In this document: in pieces, positions 916 through 61,379 of the stretch
Numbering within the stretch: position 1 is the first letter of the stretch
Layout: the number at the start of each line of letters is the position of its first letter
Assembly (NCBI GenBank): GCA_030390025.1
Contig: CM059426.1
Span: 248,001-312,000 of the forward strand
DNA: 64,000 bases
Direction of reading: 5' to 3'
DNA from: Squalus acanthias
Taxonomy: Eukaryota
The notes under the pieces: model-generated
Told to the model about the DNA's origin: nothing
Databases searched by the model: none
What the model saw: the letters and a program-made list of their open reading frames with translations, nothing else
Translations under genes and position numbers: made by a program

Positions 916-1355
916 AATATCAAAAATAGCCTCCTTCTGCGCTGTAATAGATGCTATATTCAGAGTGATTAAAAGGCAATAATCTCACTGAGTATCACGA
1001 ACCATGAACCCAGAGCAGTTTATACCTGAACACTGAGATGAGATTAAAGCCTTCACATCACTCTTGTGATGTCCATTATTTTTAAGATGTGCCATAAGGT
1101 TCACAAATAGTTTGCACTATTTTTGTCTGTAGCAGTTGTGACAATGAATACTAATGTGCATCACTGAATATTTATCGAGTGAATAGATGGTTGATTCTCA
1201 CTGATATGTACAGTCAGTATATGTTAGATTGTTTTGCTTGTGAGTCTCTGCACACATACTTTCAATTCCTGTTTAGCAGCCTGAGACCTGGGAGCAGTTC
1301 ATTCAACAGCAGCAACATACAGTTACATGGCATTGTTCCTAAAGAAAATCTAAAA

Positions 1356-3408
1356 AGGTGACTCAACCGTGGATAACAGGGGAAATTAGAGACAGCATAA
1401 AATCCAAAGATAGGGCGTATAAAATAGCCAAAAAACGCGCCAGAGCGGAAGATTGGGAACAGTTTAAGATAGAGCAAAGGAGGACAAAGGGCTTAATCAA
1501 GAGGGGCAAAATAGCTTACGAAAGCAAGCTGGCGGAAAATATAAAAACTAACTCCAAAAGCTTTTATAAGTATATCAAGAGGAAAAGACTGGTGAAAACC
1601 AAAGTTGGCCCATTGCAGTCAGATACGGGGGAATATATAACGGGAAATAAGGAAATGGCAGACCAACTAAATGCATACTTTGGGTCAGTCTTTACGAAGG
1701 AAGACACAAAAAACCTCCCTGGGATATCGGGAAAAATAGGGACATTTGCAAAGGAGGAACTGACGCAAGTCAATATCTCTAAGGATATGGTGTTAAGGAA
1801 GCTAAAGGGATTGAAGGCGGACAAATCCCCAGGGCCTGATAACATGCATCCTAGGGTGCTGAAGGAGGTGGCCCTAGAGATAGCGGATGCACTAAGTATG
1901 ATTTTTCAGAATTCATTAGACTCGGGAACAGTGCCCATGGATTGGAGGGTAGCTAACGTTACCCCACTATTCAAAAAGGGGGGTAGGCAAAAAGCAGGTA
2001 ATTACAGACCTGTAAGCCTTACATCAGTTGTGGGCAAAATGCTGGAGTCCATCATTAAGGATGAAATAGCGGAGCACTTAGCAAATGGGGACAGGATAGG
2101 ACAGAGTCAACATGGATTTACAAAGGGTAAATCGTGCTTGACTAATCTATTGGAATTTTTTGAGGGAGTAACTGGTAAAATAGATGGGGGAGAGCCAGTA
2201 GATGTGGTGTACCTGGACTTCCAAAAGGCCTTCGATAAGGTCCCACATAAAAGATTAGCAGGGAAAATTGAAGCTCATGGGATAAAGGGAAAAGTATTGA
2301 CGTGGATAGAGAACTGGCTGTCAGATAGAAAACAGAGAGTTGGAATAAACGGCTCATTTTCTGAATGGCAGGCAGTAACAAGTGGGGTACCACAGGGATC
2401 TGTCCTGGGTCCCCAGCTGTTCACAATTTACATTAATGACCTGGATCAGGGAGTCGGATGCAGCATTTCCAAATTTGCAGACGACACTAAACTAGGAGGG
2501 GGGGTGGGCTCAGAGGAGGAGACCAGGAAGCTCCAGAGCGATTTGGACAGACTGGGTGATTGGGCGGATAAATGGCAGATGCACTATAATGTGGACAAGT
2601 GCGAAGTTATCCACCTTGGGTGCAGGAACGGGAGGGCAAATTATTATTTAAATGGCAATAAATTGGGAGAGGGGGAAGTACAGAGAGACCTGGGTGTTCT
2701 TGTACACCAGTCACTGAAGGCGAGCATGCAGGTGCAACAGGCGATCAAGAAGGCAAACGGTATGCTGGCCTTCATAGCAAAAGGGTTGGAATACAGGAAC
2801 AGGGATACCTTGCTGCAGCTGTACAGGGCACTGGTGAGACCACACCTCGAGTACTGTGTACAGTTTTGGTCGCCTCATCTGAGGAAAGATGTTCTTGCCA
2901 TGGAGGGGGTGCAGCGGCGATTCACCAGGCTGATACCAGGAATGGCGGGATTGACCTATGAGGAGAGACTATGTAGTTTAGGGATGTACACACTGGAGTT
3001 TAGAAGATTGAGAGGGGACCTCATAGAAGTGTATAAAATTCTGACAGGTCTAGACAGACTAGATGCAGAAGGAATGTTTCCCTTGGCGGGTGAGAACAGA
3101 ACTAGAGGACATAATTTAAGGATAAGGGCTAAACCATTTAGGACAGAAATGAGGGGGAATTTCTTCACTCAGAGGGTGGTGAACCTGTGGAACTCATTGC
3201 CACAGAGGGCAGTGTACGCCAGCTCATTAAATATATTTAAGAGGGAATTAGATGTATTTCTACAGGCAAAAGGGGTTAAGGGTTACGGAGAGAAGGCGGG
3301 GACGGGATACTGAATTGGAGGATCAGCCATGATCTCATTAAATGGCGGAGCAGGCTCGAAGGGCCGGATGGCCTACTCCTGCTCCTATCTTCTATGTATC
3401 TATGTATG
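1356..3408 (+). mobile_element. 5'-truncated CR1-clade LINE (HER1-like), young copy
   Basis: RT ORF, 3'UTR hairpin (ggagcagg...ctcctgctcc) and (tatgtatc)n tail; probable TSD taaaa at 1351-1355 and 3409-3413. Confidence 0.95.
1358..3313 (+). CDS. CR1 ORF2 reverse transcriptase and C-terminal region; endonuclease domain lost by 5' truncation, no true ATG
   Basis: 651 open codons with motifs KSPGPD, NYRPVSLTS, QHGF, YLDFQKAFDKV, GVPQGSVLGP, KFADD, RPHLEYCVQFW, TRGH, NLWNSLP. Confidence 0.9.
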   Translation: MTQPWITGEIRDSIKSKDRAYKIAKKRARAEDWEQFKIEQRRTKGLIKRGKIAYESKLAENIKTNSKSFYKYIKRKRLVKTKVGPLQSDTGEYITGNKEMADQLNAYFGSVFTKEDTKNLPGISGKIGTFAKEELTQVNISKDMVLRKLKGLKADKSPGPDNMHPRVLKEVALEIADALSMIFQNSLDSGTVPMDWRVANVTPLFKKGGRQKAGNYRPVSLTSVVGKMLESIIKDEIAEHLANGDRIGQSQHGFTKGKSCLTNLLEFFEGVTGKIDGGEPVDVVYLDFQKAFDKVPHKRLAGKIEAHGIKGKVLTWIENWLSDRKQRVGINGSFSEWQAVTSGVPQGSVLGPQLFTIYINDLDQGVGCSISKFADDTKLGGGVGSEEETRKLQSDLDRLGDWADKWQMHYNVDKCEVIHLGCRNGRANYYLNGNKLGEGEVQRDLGVLVHQSLKASMQVQQAIKKANGMLAFIAKGLEYRNRDTLLQLYRALVRPHLEYCVQFWSPHLRKDVLAMEGVQRRFTRLIPGMAGLTYEERLCSLGMYTLEFRRLRGDLIEVYKILTGLDRLDAEGMFPLAGENRTRGHNLRIRAKPFRTEMRGNFFTQRVVNLWNSLPQRAVYASSLNIFKRELDVFLQAKGVKGYGEKAGTGY

Positions 3409-16702: not shown

Positions 16703-17453
16703 GGGGTAAAAATTGAGTCGCGCCCCATTTGGGGCGCTAACCTCGCCGGGGCGCGACTTTTAGCGCCCCGAAAAAATTAGCGGCCCCGCGCCGGAACTTC
16801 AGTGGTTGCGCCCCAAGAGGGAAGCGGGGCGCCACTGGAAGCACCCCGCATCCCTCTTGGGGCGCTGCGAGGGAATATCCTGGCGCTACGGCACGTCGCG
16901 CCGCGGTATTGCAGGCCTTCCTCCCCTTCTTAAAGGGGAGGGACCCTGCGCAGCGCGAACCGGGGCCCAGCTGGGCCCCCAGGGATCGGGAGTGCCGGCA
17001 AAAGAGCCCGGCACTCAAGAGAAGTGCCGGGCTCTTGGAGCGCAGCCGGCACTTCACGGTGGGGGGGCTTCACGGGGGCCGGGGACAGCAACGGGGGCAG
17101 GTGCTGGCAGGCGGCCAGCAACAAAAATGGCCGCCTGCCACCTCCCCTTTAAATATCGCCGCCCCGGCCGCACGTACGCCTCCCTGAACCCGTCGGACAT
17201 AGCGTCTGGCGGTAAATCAGGGGGCGCGACTGAAGATCACGGCCGGGGCGCGAGCGGGGTGCTGCGCACGGCGATGACGTCATCGCCGGCGGCGCAGCGC
17301 CACAGGGCGCTACCGGCTGCCGCCGCCGCTAACCTCCCGCTGAATTTTTCGGGAGGCGTGGGCGGCGCTGCGCCCGGGCGTTAGCTGCTTTACGCCCCAT
17401 TAGCGCCCTCTTAAGGCGCTAACGGGAGGCGCAAGCAGCTGAATTTTTCCCCC
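16703..17453. mobile_element. GC/CpG-rich PIF/Harbinger-like non-autonomous element (MITE)
   Basis: TIRs ggggtaaaaatt / aatttttccccc; 3-bp TSD ata at 16700-16702 and 17454-17456; many subterminal gcgcccc/ggggcgc motifs. Confidence 0.8.
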
Positions 17454-19527: not shown

Positions 19528-19799
19528 TCACGTCATGTATCGTGACATAAACCCAAGATCCCGGTTGAGACCGTCTTCATGAGTGCGGAACTTGGCTATC
19601 AGTTTCTGCTCGATGATTTTGCGTTGTCGTGTGTTTCTAAGGTTGCCTTGGAGAACGCTTACCCGCAGATCCGAGGCTGAATGTCCTTGACTGCTGAAGT
19701 GTTCCCCGACTGGGAGGTAACAATCCTGCCTGGCGATTGTTGCGCGGTGCTCGTTCATACGTTGTCTCAGTGTCTGCATGGTCTCGCCAATGTACCATG
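19528..19799 (-). pseudogene. GIY-YIG endonuclease fragment of a Penelope-like element
   Basis: YIGET, R-x-x-EH, conserved E and terminal GLN motifs. Confidence 0.85.
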
Positions 19800-20184
19800 A
19801 TGAGGACAATACACCTCGTTTCACGGTGCATAAAAGCAACAAGTTCTTTCAACACCTAGCAGTGGTGACTTCCTGCATTTCAGCCCATGTCTTTGATTGC
19901 CAGGAGCCAAGGTGACAGGCGTCAGTCACTATCTCCAGTACACAATCCACACATTATGCAGAAGTGATCACCATTGTGTAAAAAGAAACAATGGATGATG
20001 AGGTGGGTGGGTGGGGAGGGGGATGGGGAGAGGTGAGATTTCTCACACTGATAAAATGTAATGAAATTAAACATGATGCGGAAATTAAACAGCCAGCTTT
20101 TAGTATAACTTTATTGTTTCTTTAAGTAAAATAATTGATGCAGGATTGTTGTTATAGTCACTGGATATTATCATTATTACCAGC

Positions 20185-29090: not shown

Positions 29091-30514
29091 TTCTTCAAAT
29101 AGTGGCATGGGATCCTGTACGCCCACCTGAGAGGGCAGACAGGACCTCCGTTTAACGTCCCATCCGAAAGACGGCACCTCCGACAGTGCAGCACTCCCTC
29201 AGTACTGCATTAAAGTGTCAGCCTGGATTATGTGCTCAAGTCTCCAGAGTGAAGTTTGAATCTATGATCTTCTAACTCAGAGGCAAGTATGCAACCACTG
29301 AGCCAAGGCTGACACTTCACCAGTGCAGGAAAACTAGCTGAATTTTCCTGTCCCTAATCCAGGGGTGCTGAGGCAAATTGTATCACTGCTACCATTGCTC
29401 ACTAAGTGTGATCATCCTCTAGCCAAACCTCACGGAATGGCAGCAACACGTATGGTGGCTGGACTGGGGTGTAATGTGGATATTTTGATTTGGTGTTTTC
29501 TATTGTTTAGATCAAACCGTTGAATGAATGAGTAGATAGGCTCTGGAACAAAGATTTCCAAGTTGGCTTTTCTTATCTGCAATTTATAGAAACCGTAATC
29601 TGAGGGCAGGACACCTTGGCAAAGTAATGTTTACAATTCAACCATTGCCTTTTCTCTGATTTCACAAATGATCTCAAGTGATAAATATTCCTTTTCAGAA
29701 TTATAATTTAAAAAGATTATTTGAAATGGATAGGGCTGAATTTACTTCTGCAAACACCAAGGGCTGTAAGCTGTAATCAAATACTCCACTGGCCAATTAA
29801 AAAAAAATGCGAAAGATAATTGGTACTCTATTTTTTCAGAGGGTTAAAATAACACCAACATTTTGCACACATTGAACAGAAACCTTTTATCCATCTCATT
29901 CAGGTCTGAGCTTACCGCACATCAAAGCTATAAGCAGAACAGCTGAAACACACAACTAAAGGAAATCTGAGCAAGCAGCTCCCCTGACACAAAGAGACGA
30001 GTGATATCATTCAACCTCGTCGCAAAGCGATTTTATTTAAAATTCCAGCCCATTACTGCGCTGTTAATTTTGAGAAGGACTTCGATAAGAGATCCGAGAC
30101 ACTTTACCAGTCCCATCTCGAATAGTAACTAAAACCCGTCTCCATTTATTCCACTCATTGTTTCATTTGTAGATTAAGTTCTGAAGTTCTTGTAAGGACT
30201 TTCTATCTCGTTAAAACACAGCATCGATGTCATAGTAACTTTCTACATTTAGGTTACCTGATAGGGGACCAATACTTCCTGCTCTACCTTCTCCCTCTCT
30301 TTCCCCTTAAATCAAGTCTTATAATGTAGTTCCATCAGGTGAAATGGAACAAAGGGTCTTTGTCCGATGTCTTGATGCTTGTCCTCCTATCGATCAGAAA
30401 TGGCATTGATTACTGCAGGGTCTCAGTCTGATAGCTAAAAGCATGTCTTCTGACTATGTGCTTCCTTTATATACAATGCCGGCTCTTATTGCGGAATAAT
30501 GCTATCGGTTCCAA

Positions 30515-30992: not shown

Positions 30993-31755
30993 GGCCCAGA
31001 AATTAGACTTTGATGGTTGCCGCGGGGGTAAGGATCCGGCGCGATCTTACCTACCGCGCCTGCCTTTATGGTTCGGGCCCACACGAACTTCTGGTCCTGG
31101 GCCTCTCCCTGGTGCCGGCGCGCAGTGTGTGCGTGTCCCAGAGGCGCAGTTAGTTCGATGCGACCTCTGGGGTCACGTGGGCCAGTTAGAGCCAATGGCA
31201 GCACACCATCTTTCATTCATAGTTTTGACAGGAGAACTGTCAAAACTATGAATACAACTTGCCCCCAAAAGAACAGCTAAACCTCAATTAAATTAAAAAA
31301 AAACCATCACATTAATAAAATAACTATAGTTAAATAAATTAACCACTTTAAACAAAAATTTAAATTTTTGAAAAAATTTAAGTTCTTTTTAAAAGTTATA
31401 AAAATAAACTTACCTTTCTTTAAAGTCTCTAAAAAAGATAAACCTGTTGAAATTTTTTTAAAATAATACTTAATTAACTACTTACCTTGTTAAAAGGGGG
31501 TCTTACGCCTCCTTTTTTCATGTGTAAAATCTTCCATACTTACCCTCGCGTTCAAACCTGAAAAAAAACCTAAGTGTGCTGCGTGCGCACAGCCTGTAGT
31601 GCGCATGCAGTTCACTTAGGAACCGCCCCCTTCGCAATATCGGAAGTGCCGGTTTCCCGCGCATGCGCAGTGCATGCAGGAAACCGGCATTTCGGGACCG
31701 AATACGGGTGAGTACACAGTGCGTACTCTCCCGTATTCGGCCGAATTTCTGGGCC
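30993..31755. mobile_element. Harbinger-like MITE family M1, copy 1
   Basis: Perfect 12-bp TIR ggcccagaaatt / aatttctgggcc; flanks aat / att; homologous in reverse orientation to 44851-45594. Confidence 0.85.
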
Positions 31756-37267: not shown

Positions 37268-38120
37268 GGGGGGAATTTTAACCCAAAAAAACGAGTGGGT
37301 CGGGGTCGGGTGGGAGGTTAAAGTGTTAAAAGTCTGAATTCCAACCAGAACCTGCCTCCAAACCACCCACTTCAGGTTTTAGCGGAGGTGGGACGGTGGG
37401 GGCGGGCAGCCAACCCGCTCCCAGGAGGTGGGTCACCCATTTAAATATTATAATGAGGCTGGCGTGCTTCAGATTTAACCACCATTTTAAATTTAACAGT
37501 GGCCGGTCGGGTTTTGCAGGCCTCGTGAAACCCGCCAGCTAATGGAAGGCGTGAACTGCGGGATTCAGGAGGTAAGTGCCTTTACACTTACCTCCTGGAT
37601 CCAGCGTCCCTGCCTACTCCACCCCTCGCGTTCGGAGACGCCCCAACGAGGCCGTTGATTTCATCCCCAACCCCGGCCGCCAATCGCCTTCCTGGCCTCC
37701 CATCCCCCCCCCCCCAACGATGCTCCTCCAGCCCCTCGATGCCATCTGCCTCAGCCCCCATGCTCCTCCGGCCCCCATGCAACAAGCTCCTCCAGCCCCC
37801 CGATAAACTCCTCCAGCCCCCCGATAAACTCCTCTGGCCCCCCGATAAACTCCTCCGGCCCCCCCCTCCCCCGATGAGTCCCCGGCTGCACGCGATCCCT
37901 CCCTCCCTCCTCTCTGCGGCCTAGTGCTGCAGGCCTACCCGGCCACAGCCAACCAGCATCTCCATCTGGCTGGCTGCGGGTGGGAAATGCAGGTTTCAAA
38001 TGCAAATCAGGCCCTGCTGTTAAATTTGGCAGGGCCTGCGAGAAATCCGTTCTCCTGGGTTTCCCCAATCGCTTCCGAGCCCACCTGCTCCCAACCCGCC
38101 AAAGTATTAAAATTCAGGCC
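37268..38120. mobile_element. Harbinger-like MITE family M2, copy 1, with an internal 21-bp tandem repeat (~37780-37865)
   Basis: Termini ggggggaattttaa / ttaaaattcaggcc; TSD aaa / aaa; homologous to 60713-61379. Confidence 0.75.
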
Positions 38121-42637: not shown

Positions 42638-42850
42638 TGCTGCTTCCATCATTGCCCACATCAGTCTCTTCCCGCGGGTGCCGAATCCTCATGCTGCTTC
42701 CATCATTGCCCACATCAGTCTCTTCCCGCGGGTGCCGAATCCTCATGCTGCTTCCATCATTGCCCACATCAGTCTCTTTCCGCGGGTGCCGAATCCTCAT
42801 GCTGCTTCCATCATTGCCCACATCAGTCTCTTCCCGCGGGTGCCAAACCC
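42638..42850. repeat. 54-bp tandem repeat, ~3.9 near-identical units
   Basis: Unit tgctgcttccatcattgcccacatcagtctcttcccgcgggtgccgaatcctca starts at 42638, 42692, 42746 and 42800. Confidence 0.95.
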
Positions 42851-42997
42851 TTCAAGCTCTCTCTGTAAGGTCTACATCTCACTCTTTCATACGTCATTGA
42901 GCCACAACTTCTGGATGACTTCCCTCCCTTTTTCAGAAATGTTTCCACTGCTCCATTACATCCGCTACCCTGGCACCTGGGAAGCAACACACCATTC

Positions 42998-43455: not shown

Positions 43456-44163
43456 GGGCTGGATTTTGATACTGGGGCGGGTTGGGGTCGTGTCATCCGC
43501 TTTTCGTGTTATCCACCCGACTGCAATTGGATGTGGGAGATTGATGCAATTTTCACCTAATTGGGCAATTGAGTTCCAGCATGTGGGAACCCATGACCCT
43601 ATTAGTGGTTTCAGTCTGAAAGTCGCCTCTGATGATGTCATCATTGTTGCTGCATTGCAGGTCAGAGACTGCCTGGCCTTTGCTGTGAGAGGACCTGGAT
43701 GCAAAATGAGCAGTAGCTCAGAGAGAGAGAGAGAGAGAGAATTTTTTTGCACCACCACTCCCAGATACGGATCCTCCATCCCAGATGCCTGCCAGCCCCA
43801 GTCACTGATAGTCAGCCCAGCCACTGATAGTCAGCCCAGCCACTGATAGTCAGCTATCCAAATGTGCTCCCGCCAGGTTTCACAATCGTGGTTCAGAACA
43901 GGCGTGTTTCACGGAGAACAAGGGTTAAAATCACAAAGGCCTTTCAAAATGGCATTATAGAGCCAATTTAGTGCTTGTTAAGAGCCTTAACAGCCTATCC
44001 CGTCTCTTAGAGGCGGGACGGAGTCGGGACCAGCAGACACGATTTAATGAAAATTGCGTAGAGGCGGGATGGAGGCGGACTTGTGCCCGCCCGCCAGTTT
44101 TTGCAATTTTAACCCCCCACACGCCTCCAAACCCGCCTCCACGGGTCAATGAAAATCCAGCCC
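43456..44163. mobile_element. Harbinger-like MITE family M3, with an internal 19-bp tandem repeat (~43797-43857)
   Basis: Perfect 12-bp TIR gggctggatttt / aaaatccagccc; TSD ttg / ttg. Confidence 0.8.
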
Positions 44164-44850
44164 TTGGTCTCTTAGCCACTCCCTAAATTCAAATTGCAGA
44201 ATCAGTTAACTTAATTAACTTGACACCTAAATTGCTTAATTTGGAAAGCAACTCAATCCTCACACAGCCTCAGTTACTCCAGCACACAAACAACAAAGTC
44301 ATCATCTCCAACTCCTCTTCCAGCCAAAGTCCGTCCCTTTCCTTCTGTCAGAAAAAACTCACCCTGTCAGCATCTCACTCAATCAGCCTTCCATAGAGAG
44401 AGCGGAATTTGATACGAGTGTGTTAAACATTCGTCATTACTTACAGTAATTTCTACTCGTATAAATTTATAACAGGTTTTCCAATATACCATAATATTAT
44501 TATGACATCGTGTTCTCGACAAATATATATATTAATGACAGTTATGGGACTTGTACAATGTATGGATCTCATTAAAAGTAGGGTTGAAAAGTACACAATC
44601 TACACTTTCAAACACATGAATAAAAATTCAAATCGCAGTGGACTCAATGGGCTTAGTTTTATGTTGTGTTTGGCATGGAAATGTAGTTGATCCGCACAGG
44701 CATGCTGCTATTTAAAAAGAAAAAGAGGGACAAACACATCCAAACACTGAAATGGGACAAGTTTAAAGACTCAATGAAAAACTGGAAATGACAAAATGCA
44801 AACAGTTTGAATTTTCAGTTCAGATCAGTGTTAGTCCTCAATGACATAAC

Positions 44851-45594
44851 GGGCCAGAAATTGATCCCGGGACGCGAGAGTACGCACTGCGTACTCTCGC
44901 GTATTCTCTCTCCAATTGCCGGTTTTCTGCATGCCCTGCGCATGCGCTGAAAACCGGCAATTGCTCTTTTGAAAAGGGGGCGGTTCCTCGCTGCATCGCG
45001 TGCGCGCTACAGGCTGCGCGCACGCTGTGCACTTCATGCTTTGGACGCGCAGGTAAGTACGGAAGATTTTAGAAATGGAAAAAGGAGGAGTAAGACCCGC
45101 TTTTAAGAAGGTAAGTAGTGAATTAAGTATTTTTTTGAATTTTTTTTAACAGGTATATCTTTTTTAGAGACTTTAAAGACAGGTAAGTTTATTTTTATAA
45201 CTTTTTAGAAGATTTTAAATTTTTTCAAAAATTTAATTTTTTATTTAAAATGGTTAATTTAATTAACTATACTTATTTTATTAATGTGATGGTTTTTTTT
45301 TAAAATTTAATTGAGGTTTAGCTGTTATTTTGGGGGGGTGTAAGATTCATAGATTTCACAGCACGTATGTGAAACTTATGAATGGAAGATGGTGTGCTGT
45401 CATTGGCTCTAACTGAGTCACGTGATCCCACAGCTCGCACGAATTCACTACGCCGCTGGGATACGCAAGCCCAGCACAGCTGATGTCTGGAACATCAAGT
45501 TCGTGCGAGCTGGATCTGAAAAAGCACAAGCGAGGTGAGAGATCGCGGGGAAGCCTTACCCCCGCGGGAACAGAGCGAGATCAATTTCTGGGCC
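44851..45594. mobile_element. Harbinger-like MITE family M1, copy 2
   Basis: TIR gggccagaaattgatc / gatcaatttctgggcc; TSD aac / aac. Confidence 0.88.
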
Positions 45595-45834
45595 AACATT
45601 TTATGAAATGCATATATGCAACGTTCCCAAATTAATATAAAGAGGTGCCTCGGCTTCTACCGAGCAGCATGGTCTCATCCTTTGTGAAATAATATATAAT
45701 AGCAGTGCAGTATTTCAGAATGAATACAAAGAGGTTCTTCAGCTGGGTAAATGAACAATGTGTATGAGAGTTCCTGCTGATGACTGATGAGAAATACACT
45801 GCCCTGTATGGAATTGAGCCATATAGAACAGGAA

Positions 45835-46516
45835 GGTCTCCTCTACACTGGGGAGAGCAAACACAGATTGGGTGATTGCTTTGCTGAACATCTCCATTCA
45901 GTCCCCAAGCATAACTCTGAGCTTCAGGTCGCTTGCCATTTTAATTCTCTGTCCCATTCCCACTCCCATTCCCACTCCAGCCTCTCTGTCCTTGGCCTCG
46001 TACACTGTTCTAATGAAGCTCAACGGAAGCTCAAGGAACAGCACCTCAAACTTCGATTAGGCACTTTACAACCTTCCTGACTCAACATTGAGTTCTGCAG
46101 TTTCAGATCACAGCCACTGCTCTCATTTCTTCAGACAGCAGGTGCTGGTAATGATTCTATTGTTGTCATTTGCACCTCCGCTAGACCCGTCTTTTATTTC
46201 TTTACTTGTCCCAGCACCACCCCCTTTTGCCTTGCACCATCATCCCTTTTGTCATTTAATCTCTCCTACCTTCCACCCTATCACAGACCTTCCCTTTTGT
46301 TCTTTCCTCCCCTCTCCCCCCTCCTTTCCCTGTCTCTGCACTTGCTTAAAAACCGTCACGTCTCTAACTTTTTCCAGTTCTGACGAAAGGTCAACGAGCT
46401 GAAACGTTAACTCTGTTTCTCTCTCTCCACAAACGCCGCCTGACCTGCTGAGTATTTCCAGCATTTTCTGTTTTTATTTCAGATTTCCAGCATCCGCAGT
46501 ATTTTGCTTTTGTATT
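45835..46516 (+). mobile_element. Penelope-like family A, 5'-truncated (GIY-YIG fragment plus pseudo-LTR)
   Basis: LLYTGESKHRLGDCFAEH...VACHFN...RKLKEQHL...LQP; pseudo-LTR with hammerhead motif and 3' extension. Confidence 0.88.
46376..46412 (+). ncRNA. Minimal hammerhead motif with one stem II mismatch
   Basis: AGUU CUGACGA A AGGUC-aac-GAGCU GAAA CG UU AACU. Confidence 0.65.
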
Positions 46517-46777
46517 AGTGCTCACTGAGTTTTAGTCATTGGCTAAAAGACATGACAATCAGAGTAGTGTACCCTCCGCCTGAGCAAGCAGTCCCAATCA
46601 CTTTTACCCTTCCTGTTCCCATATCCTCTTCTGATCCCCAACATTACTCTGGCTGAGATCCGCTAACAGTACAGATGAGGAATCACATGAGAATCATCTT
46701 ATTCCATATGGCTTAGTTCAAGCCAGGGAATTTCCTGTTCTACATACCTCAGCATTAAACCTGGGACCTTCCTGTGC

Positions 46778-47062
46778 TACAAAAACAAAATACTGCGGAT
46801 GCTGGAAATCTGAAATAAAAGCAGAAAATGCTGGAAATACTCAGCAGGTCAGGCAGCGTCTGTGGAGAGAGAGAAACAGAGTTAACGTTTCAGCTCGATG
46901 ACCTTATGTCAGAACTGGAAGAAGTTAGAGACGTGACAGTTTTTAAGCAAGTGCGGAGACAGGGAAAGGGGTGGGGGAGAGGGGAGGAAAGAACAAAAGG
47001 GCAGGTCTGTGATAGGATGGAAGGCAGGAGTGATTAAATGACAAAAGGGATGATGGCGTGAG
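46778..47062 (-). mobile_element. Penelope family A pseudo-LTR fragment with mutated hammerhead core (CUGACAU)
   Basis: Reverse complement of 46235-46514. Confidence 0.88.
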
Positions 47063-52440: not shown

Positions 52441-53394
52441 CATTATTACAGCACTGCCACTAAAATGGGGGCTCCAGTAAAGTAAAGGGGCATTAGACTC
52501 GAGCATTAACTGCAAGGTCAGAGCTGTATTCATACCGATGACCTCTCGATCATTCACCCATCCTTGGGCGTGGAAGCGACGGTACATTACTGCATTATCA
52601 TCGGGCTCAGTGAGATAAATGAAACATTTATGGCATCGAAGTGTCCTATTTATGACATAGCAATGGAATTTCAGAAGCATGAACAGGAAATGGTTTAGTG
52701 TTTTGAAATTTTGTGACTGCAGTGTGGTAATAATTGAATTTGGGAAGAGAAGCCCTTCTTTCTTTCTGATTTAATTAAACTGTCAAACTGTCAGAAGTCC
52801 AGTCTCCTCGGCATTCCGTGTTCTGCATGTGAGTGTTAAAGAAACTGGTTGGTGTTGTTTTGTTGCAATCTGGTTTTAATGCAGTGATATCACTTTCCAT
52901 TAATCCTGGTTACTTTCAGCTTTTGTTTTTCCTGCTCTACCATTCTCTCATTCTTCCAAATTACTGGCCTATTCTAGATAACATTCCACACTCTTTAGTG
53001 TTGAAGAAAAACGCTCCACTTGGCGGGACTCACTTTTTCAGTAGACGTTCATATTGCTGACAGTTCTAAAACTGTTCGGTTTAGTACAGGGGTGTCTTAT
53101 GGAGCCGGCGGGTCAGAGAGAACATGGCTGACACTTCCATCTAACTACCGCTGTCTCTGTGGAGCTGGCTTGAGGCCCTGAGCAGTGGTTCTCCCAGAGG
53201 TGTCAACGTCGGGGAGATGTTACAAGATCTATCAAGAAATAGTGAGACAGATCAGCAACCCATTTAAATATGTTTAACCGTTTCAGCACTAAACGTTGGT
53301 CTCACTCAGAGGGAATAATTTACGTTGGTGAGGTAGAGAGTGTTCTTCTGAGCTTGTGATGGAGTACAGGGGCATTCTACTCTTTCATCTAACT

Positions 53395-55394: not shown

Positions 55395-55522
55395 NNNNNN
55401 NNNNNNNNNNNNNNNNNNNNNNNNNNNNNNNNNNNNNNNNNNNNNNNNNNNNNNNNNNNNNNNNNNNNNNNNNNNNNNNNNNNNNNNNNNNNNNNNNNNN
55501 NNNNNNNNNNNNNNNNNNNNNN
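55395..55522. other. Assembly gap (128 N)
   Basis: Run of n. Confidence 1.
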
Positions 55523-60712: not shown

Positions 60713-61379
60713 GGGGGTCATTTTAACCCCAAAAACGGGTGGGTTGGGGTTGGGTGAGATGTCAAAATTTTAAAAATCTCAAACCCGACCCCAACCCACC
60801 TCCAACCTGCCCACTTCCGGGTTTAACGGAGAGGGGACAAGGGCCAGGTAGCCAACCCGCTCCCAAGAGGCGGGTTGTCCATTTAAATATTATAATGAGG
60901 CCGAGAGGCTCACATTTAACCTGCATTACAGGTTTAACCCTGGCTGGCTGGGTTTCCCAAGCCTCAGGAAATCCCGCGGCTCAGGGGAGGCGAGGACAGC
61001 TTCGGGGAAAAGCCAAGCGCCCTTACAGCACTGGTTGTGGGCCAGGAGGAGCAGGAGTGCTTCCCCCGGTCACCCCAAGCTTACCTCTTTCCCTGGGATC
61101 GGACCCCCCCCAATCCAATGACCCTCACCTCCCCCCCCTCGATCGGGGATCAGACCCCCACCGGGATCGGATCCCCCCCCCCATGCTCCTACTATCAGCT
61201 GCAGGTTCCTTACCTGTGGCTGCGGCCTGCTCCAGAGTGCTCCCCGCCTGACTGGAAGCCAAGCCTGTCAATCAGGCTGACTTCTGGGCGGTGATCTTGT
61301 TAAAAAAAAGTTGCACACTATGGATTTAAAACTCCGCCCCCCCCCGTTTACCGAACCCGCCCCTGTCAATATCGGGGCC
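60713..61379. mobile_element. Harbinger-like MITE family M2, copy 2
   Basis: 5' part collinear with 37268-37560; imperfect TIR; TSD att / att. Confidence 0.72.

Follow-up and report, generated by a model that had tools for sequence, protein, structure and literature searches.

The terminal or subterminal DNA of Harbinger transposons is described as bound by Myb-like proteins that recruit the transposase (PMC9392472, PMC2836001, 10.64898/2026.05.26.728016). Target preference past the duplicated bases is a trait of the superfamily (PMC2836001), and TWA, CWG and ANT subgroups have been defined, with TIRs that start with GG (PMC4482050). The mobility of mPing is tuned by its internal sequence (PMC9921582), and internal palindromes have been described in a Harbinger MITE of Xenopus (PMC12676858). 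Among cartilaginous fish, Harbingers were reported as not detected in elephant shark, and other species were left for testing (PMC9179366). A separate body of work concerns vertebrate promoters: in the U1-poly(A) model, poly(A) sites sit in the upstream antisense transcript (PMC6199362). Transcription starts derived from transposable elements have been examined for their content of 5' splice sites and poly(A) signals, and DNA transposons are minor contributors in the human atlas (PMC12963367).

A Harbinger-type MITE and its second copy

Positions 44851 to 45594 of the window (the whole 64-kb stretch of DNA that was analyzed) are very probably occupied by a 744-bp non-coding TIR transposon, a MITE of the PIF/Harbinger group, here called element A. 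This identity follows from TIRs that start with GG, an AAC/AAC duplication, a second copy (element B) and a palindromic target like that of Harbinger elements. The boundaries are exact (44851-45594, flanks AAC/AAC, TIR GG(G/C)CCAGAAATT), and the 12-bp core TIR has one mismatch in A and none in B.

44848..44850: left target-site duplication AAC, directly preceded by the target half-site GACAT
44851..44862, plus strand: left TIR, GGGCCAGAAATT, whose arms reach 19 nt and are 89% complementary
45050..45334: AT-rich core, about 23% GC, 87-92% identical between A and B, containing palindrome P4 (below) and six antisense AWTAAA hexamers
45583..45594, minus strand: right TIR, reading GGCCCAGAAATT on that strand
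45595..45597: right target-site duplication AAC
30993..31755, minus strand: copy B, second member of the family, colinear with A, 763 bp long, with 78% identity and AAT/ATT as flanks

The non-autonomous TIR family of the original prediction was borne out by the TIRs, the 3-bp duplication, the second copy and the lack of a coding frame; the sole stop-free frame of at least 100 aa in A (44834-45145, minus strand) had no Pfam match. Within the 64-kb window we found neither an autonomous partner (matching ends, a DDE transposase and a Myb/SANT gene) nor, with a profile built from A and B, a third copy, and every conservation figure given for this family compares two copies only, A and B. These lie in opposite orientations and differ at 20% of positions, with transversions predominating (89/151); in the AT-rich core, runs of 22 to 29 nt outside the promoter-type motifs are invariant. 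The left end of A is CpG rich as predicted (observed/expected ratio, 1.24, against 0.40 in the remainder of the window), but this is not a property of one end only, since the right end is CpG rich too (0.88).

A Harbinger-type MITE is ordinary in kind. The literature searched contained no description of this family or of arrays of U1 sites or donors in MITEs, and an uncurated Repbase or Dfam entry is possible.

Six insertions with a common target

Four further elements of 667 to 853 bp, with related TIRs and 3-bp duplications, lie in the window. A slash within a donor motif marks the splice junction here and below.

16703..17453: element C, with related TIR and target, ATA/ATA, seven palindrome centres and no donor motif
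37268..38120: element E, AAA/AAA, with GAG/GTAAGT as an inverted pair at 37572 and 37591
43456..44163: element D, with related TIR and target, TTG/TTG and no strong palindrome or donor
60713..61379, minus strand: element F, ATT/ATT, with two GC boxes and then three co-oriented donor-like sites (61213, 61128, 61084)

The left 290 bp are common to E and F (75%), and the two sequences diverge beyond. Some features of these elements are recorded as side observations. Element C has 68% GC and a CpG observed/expected ratio of 0.99; element D carries a perfect 12-bp TIR and, internally, a GA run and a tandem array of 19-bp units (43797-43854); and element E has an octamer-type motif as well as the hairpin formed by its two GAG/GTAAGT sites. 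A lone TIR-like end, GGGCTGGAATTTT, stands at 30051 (minus strand), and no partner was found for it.

The six insertions, of five families, fill a gap that PMC9179366 states for cartilaginous fish. The 3-bp duplication is identical on both sides in five of the six elements and off by one base in B; for E and F, the duplication guided the visual placement of the ends. A and four other elements have in common the palindromic context RA(C)AY-NWN-RT(G)TY (P of about 5e-5). Across the 12 half-sites of the six elements, A occupies -4 and -2 in 11, and R at -5 and Y at -1 are found in all 12; left-right symmetry holds at 19/30 positions compared to 7.5 expected (P = 5e-5). The elements thus display the target preference beyond the duplication (15 bp in vertebrates). 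No element has the TWA duplication of the canonical PIF/Tourist group (0/6) or the CWG duplication of the NuwaI group (0/6), and only B and F (2/6) have the ANT duplication of the Pangu group, that of A being AAC. The central triplets (AAC, AAT/ATT, ATA, TTG, AAA, ATT) therefore fit none of these groups.

Genomic surroundings

No host gene was recognized in a Pfam scan of 231 of the 247 stop-free frames of at least 55 aa outside self-repeats, plus 4 others, which returned only two reverse transcriptases and four matches below cutoff. A scan for splice signals gave eight candidate host exons, all unconvincing. A plasmid blastn search gave one AT-rich low-complexity match, which was rejected, as were five weak hairpin matches to Rfam, where nothing reached the gathering score. 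An exon-like open stretch at 52530-52610 (minus strand) contains CpG and ends in G/GTATGA; no relative of it was found.

Other repeats were noted in passing. A LINE reverse-transcriptase frame (1343-3313) is uninterrupted over 656 aa, and its nearest named relatives among the matches listed are shark and ray proteins: among 120 relatives listed for 1343-3310, identity is 62-75% for the four named proteins of sharks and rays and 39-53% for those named from birds and turtles. The host is thus likely a cartilaginous fish. A GIY-YIG-like fragment below the Pfam cutoff (19531-19848, minus strand) is presumably a Penelope-type remnant. Two 199-nt repeat fragments, 94% complementary and 263 nt apart, occupy 46316-46976; a 54-bp tandem array of four copies occupies 42638-42851; and a gap of 128 N bases lies at 55395-55522.

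Compensated palindromes in both copies

Five homologous near-perfect Watson-Crick palindromes are found in both A and B. The five centres per copy compare with 0.16 to 0.36 in shuffled sequences and with none in 24 of 24 control segments. In A the palindromes are as follows.

44872..44902: P1, 15-bp arms and a 1-nt spacer; arms of 21 bp in copy B; one compensated transversion
44913..44963: P2, 18-bp arms and a 15-nt spacer; two compensated pairs
44992..45031: P3, surrounding an invariant TACAGGCT spacer; one compensated pair
45215-45236: P4, inside the AT-rich core
45345..45383: P5, 16-bp arms; one compensated transversion
45431..45512: P6, 13-bp arms and a 56-nt spacer; perfect in A only

Comparison of 92 arm pairs between the copies showed 59 unchanged, 5 compensated (3 of them by transversion), 19 broken on one side and 9 changed otherwise. 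The five compensated pairs exceed the 0.7 to 1.3 obtained under simulated independent decay (P = 0.0007 to 0.01). Within each copy, with arm extents chosen per copy, mismatches number 5 in 75 pairs (A) and 7 in 88 (B). Since arms are near intact within each copy despite 20% divergence between A and B, we infer that the two derive from two subfamily masters.

One explanation of the hairpins is selection for the fold itself, as a small-RNA precursor or as structure in a single-stranded DNA intermediate. Both ends do fold strongly (z scores from -4 to -13), and the compensated pairs would suit such a role. Folding is equally strong on either strand, however (z scores for sense and antisense of -7.1 and -6.8 in A and of -10.8 and -13.1 in B), and the arm mismatches have no G:U bias (G:T to A:C ratios of 2:1 and 2:3). 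The 1-nt spacer of P1 and the lack of an Rfam family at gathering score also count against a structured RNA, and the TIR and 3-bp duplication point to cut-and-paste movement of double-stranded DNA. Selection for the fold is therefore very improbable, and the RNA reading was rejected for want of strand or wobble bias; equal folding on both strands without wobble bias suggests that the palindromes act at the level of DNA.

The palindromes could also be relics. The left end of A might be what remains of the promoter of an autonomous parent, with a short non-coding first exon and the start of intron 1, having no present role, and the palindromes would then persist by template switching from arm to arm. 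The clustering of outer-arm changes in A (6/6 pairs in P1 and P3) suggests segmental rewriting of this kind. We consider such a vestige unlikely, for reasons that lie in the motifs described below.

An array of donor-like sites

Every motif named in the original prediction is present at its position in A. The donor-like sites are listed here with splice-site scores (PWM, in bits) that use approximate textbook frequencies.

45050..45058, plus strand: donor-like CAG/GTAAGT (GT at 45053); AGG/GTAAGT in copy B
GT at 45090, plus strand: donor-like GGA/GTAAGA, weak, 1.0 bits; -0.7 in copy B
45108..45116, plus strand: donor-like AAG/GTAAGT (GT at 45111); identical in copy B
45131..45158, plus strand: T-tract and AACAG/GTATAT (CAG/GTATAT, GT at 45153); acceptor-like in A only, not kept in copy B
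45180..45188, plus strand: donor-like CAG/GTAAGT (GT at 45183); AAG/GTAAGT in copy B
45534..45560: inverted pair GGTGAG...CTTACC, donor-like on both strands, with GAG/GTGAGA at 45535; GGTAAG...CTTACC in copy B

The array itself is real. AGGTAAGT occurs three times on the sense strand of A compared to 0.007 to 0.019 expected, a count matched in none of 5,000 dinucleotide shuffles, either of the whole sequence or by 100-nt block. Three sites that match the donor consensus at 8 or 9 of 9 positions are present in copy B as well (P = 0.002 to 0.003). The sites at 45090 and 45153 are weak donors. The recursive splice site proposed at 45153 did not survive comparison with B, in which As stand in place of the T-tract, the acceptor score (at 45152 in A) falls from 6.1 to below 2 and the donor score from 2.75 to -2.2. 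Co-orientation, likewise proposed for the donors, stands for the three GTAAGT sites, whereas the site at 45535 has, in both copies, an inverted partner on the minus strand, GG/GTAAGG, which ends at 45560. Inverted GGTRAG pairs are present in A, B and E.

Conservation of the donors depends on the background used. All 21 aligned donor bases are identical in A and B compared to 547/697 across the element (P = 0.007), but no conservation above the local background emerged in the AT core (21/21 against 90%, P = 0.11; 24/27, P = 0.71). In the six elements, with A and B both counted, GGTRAG reaches 3.8 per kb compared to 0.96 outside, and A at -2 is enriched at their GGTRAG sites (12/17 against 15/57, P = 0.0015). 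Elements C to F hold five strong donors compared to 1.1 to 2.0 expected (P = 0.005 to 0.05, or 0.013 to 0.13 if the inverted pair of E is counted once), and C and D, which account for two of the window's five families, hold none. In F the GC boxes (internal positions 17 and 40) and donors (166, 251 and 295) lie on one strand, in an interior unrelated to A. The right-end GGTRAG site of B is almost wholly paired in the RNA fold (unpaired probability, 0.03). Helical phasing of four of the five GT sites (P = 0.049, post hoc) is a weak hint, and a 10.3-bp AA/TT period is weak in A (P = 0.02) and not significant in B (P = 0.21).

In introner-type elements, splice sites lie at the element ends and the whole element is spliced out. 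An assignment of A to this type was rejected, because the donors lie 200 to 330 nt inside and acceptor scores near the right end do not exceed 2 bits. MSANTD3 may bind a donor-like motif; in the text of the literature searched, no MSANTD binding motif is given.

Promoter-type motifs and poly(A) signals

Transcription factor names attached to these motifs, including NRF1 and the YY1-like core proposed for AAGATGG, serve as labels for motif types.

44937..44947: NRF1-type motif TGCGCATGCGC, within P2, identical in copy B
44977..44983, plus strand: GC box GGGGCGG, part of a 15-nt run identical in copy B
45386..45425: AAGATGG, ATTGG (45402) and CACGTG, all kept in copy B
45417-45425: GTCACGTGA, as originally predicted

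The NRF1-type 11-mer is rare by shuffling (P = 0.0002 to 0.0024) and the GC box marginal (P = 0.02 to 0.05); ATTGG (P = 0.66 to 0.72) and CACGTG (P = 0.06 to 0.12) are not above chance alone, nor are the GC-box pairs of C, E and F taken singly. Together, A has three promoter-type motifs against 0.23 expected (P = 0.001). All 18 bases of the NRF1 motif and GC box are conserved compared to 125/169 (74%) of their left-end neighbors (P = 0.006), as are all 11 of ATTGG and CACGTG compared to 160/237 (P = 0.015).

That the array and motifs arose by chance or low complexity is scarcely credible. ATTGG, CACGTG, the sites at 45090 and 45153 and the antisense AATAAA are individually at chance level, but A and B alike exceed shuffled sequences in the three strong donors, in the NRF1 11-mer and in palindromes. 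Internal micro-duplication could yield repeats but not their match to the consensus, and for the strong sites the chance reading is largely refuted.

A possible, if on balance doubtful, alternative is that the element mimics a promoter and first exon through its RNA: NRF1, SP, NF-Y, USF and YY1 sites would start transcription, U1 bound at the strong donors would sustain it, the element would be kept open and unmethylated in the germline, and some copies would give host genes promoters or first exons. Strong donors downstream on the sense strand, as at U1-poly(A) promoters, are present (three sites, P of at most 0.003 in both copies), matching the consensus at 8 or 9 of 9 positions downstream of the NRF1 motif and GC box in both copies. 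The conservation of those motifs, that of the donors relative to the whole element and the excess of promoter-type motifs in A favor this idea further, as do the order of GC box and then donors in the unrelated F and the surplus of strong donors in C to F. So do CpG ratios of 1.0 to 1.2 compared to 0.40 and the absence of sense AWTAAA from both copies, although the latter is not significant (about one expected).

The proposed directionality, with U1 sites on the sense strand and poly(A) signals on the antisense strand, was not supported. The six antisense AWTAAA hexamers of the core lie downstream of the putative start and are at the level expected from composition (P = 0.22 to 0.45; for AATAAA, three compared to 2.4 expected from local composition, P = 0.45), and none occurs in the 600 bp upstream of A or of B, a geometry unlike that described in PMC6199362. 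Unspliced donors are described there as promoting nuclear retention and decay, which would work against a transcript of this kind. The donors are no more conserved than the surrounding AT core, stretches without promoter motifs are equally invariant (core runs of 22 to 29 nt), donor pairs are inverted, and there is no conserved acceptor. What remains of the portable promoter and first exon is a genuine donor array, conserved NRF1 and GC-box motifs and the same order in F; directionality, the recursive site, full co-orientation and conservation above the local background were not supported. On sequence grounds, the directional-promoter reading is only partly supported. We regard as unlikely the broader proposal that Harbinger MITEs of elasmobranchs were selected as mimics of housekeeping promoters and first exons, open and transcribed in the germline and so within reach of the transposase, with families convergent and thousands of portable first exons seeded.

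The same motifs bear on a vestigial promoter. A CpG-rich end, NRF1 site, GC box, donor and AT-rich tract form the layout of the 5' end of a gene, and donor conservation equal to the local background would suit an inherited remnant. MITEs are commonly born by internal deletion (10.64898/2026.05.26.728016). Against a relic, the NRF1 motif, GC box, ATTGG and CACGTG exceed their neighbors in conservation across 20% divergence in two colinear non-coding copies, and a single exon would not require three perfect donors within 130 bp.

Proposed protein docking on double-stranded DNA

Our preferred explanation, held tentatively and at somewhat short of even chances, is that the palindromes, promoter-type motifs and GGTAAGT array are docking sites for proteins on double-stranded DNA that aid copying of the element, and not a working promoter and first exon. 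Element A would derive from an autonomous Harbinger with two genes that lost internal sequence, and may retain the promoter-bearing end of this parent; the descent of A and B from two masters would mean that palindromes and motifs persisted during continued multiplication of the lineage. We propose that the subterminal palindromes and the repeated GGTRAG sites are bound by the transposase and a trans-acting Myb/SANT (trihelix) protein, that host factors at the NRF1, GC, CCAAT and E-box motifs keep the element ends accessible and that the AT-rich core, as a flexible spacer, allows the ends to come together. The resemblance of GGTAAGT to the U1 target could then be inherited or a coincidence of the DNA motif, and any cryptic splicing would be incidental at most.

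Docking on DNA is favored by the match to the target, the excess of palindromes, the compensated pairs, the near-intact arms, the lack of strand preference, the inverted GGTRAG pairs and the pairing of the right-end site of B in RNA. The binding of Myb-like proteins to Harbinger ends, the tuning of mPing mobility and the internal palindromes of the Xenopus MITE speak for it as well, and the helical phasing and AA/TT period in A are weak hints in its favor. Several observations count against it. Three sites in A match the donor consensus at 9/9 positions, and Myb-like domains usually read 6 to 8 bases, shorter than this match (PMC9921582). The enrichment of A at -2 and the order of GC box and then donors in F weigh against it too, as do the lack of the motif in C and D, which share the TIR type and target, and the failure of the 10-bp period to reach significance in B. 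The mPing study, moreover, reports no shared sequence-specific internal site (PMC9921582). Docking, U1 mimicry and vestige are not exclusive, because an inherited promoter could be kept for opening chromatin.

The A/B family, whose palindromes and motifs have survived 20% divergence, is a good test bed for constraint inside MITEs. Should the donor array work via U1, it would be a case of a DNA transposon exploiting host first-exon signals for its own spread.

Comparison with known systems

The U1-poly(A) promoters of vertebrates resemble A in having donors downstream of a CpG-rich motif cluster (PMC6199362); they differ in that the antisense path upstream of A lacks poly(A) hexamers and the start in A is putative. 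Rice Tourist mPing (PIF/Harbinger) is alike in its mobilization by two proteins, extended target preference and modulation of mobility by internal sequence, and differs in its TWA target and in that no shared sequence-specific internal site is reported.

The Xenopus elements Harbinger-N12A_XT, Kolobok-N2_XT and hAT-N16_XT are likewise MITEs of a vertebrate that have TIRs and, internally, palindromic or direct repeats, and some copies of Xenopus MITEs lie in open chromatin with transcription factor motifs (PMC12676858). The Harbinger-N12A_XT consensus begins with GGGCC, like the GG-starting TIR here, but is 342 bp long with one large palindrome, and no GGTAAG or CTTACC was found in it (PMC12676858). 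Xenopus MITEs also differ in being reported as distal enhancers and not as promoters or donors (PMC12676858). In the Kolobok-N2_XT consensus of the frog, GC boxes and, on either side, AAG/GTATGT facing outward can be made out by eye, and in hAT-N16_XT the direct repeats contain many GTAAGT in one orientation (PMC12676858 supplement 5); these two patterns, seen by eye, may provide one lead for each rival reading.

Zebrafish Harbinger3_DR and Harbinger3N_DR are alike in their 3-bp duplication and short GG-starting TIRs, and their published palindromic target, AAACACCWGGTCTTT (PMC3016246), resembles the RA(C)AY-NWN-RT(G)TY found here. Harbinger3_DR is of the CWG type, whereas central triplets here are never CWG and A has no coding part.
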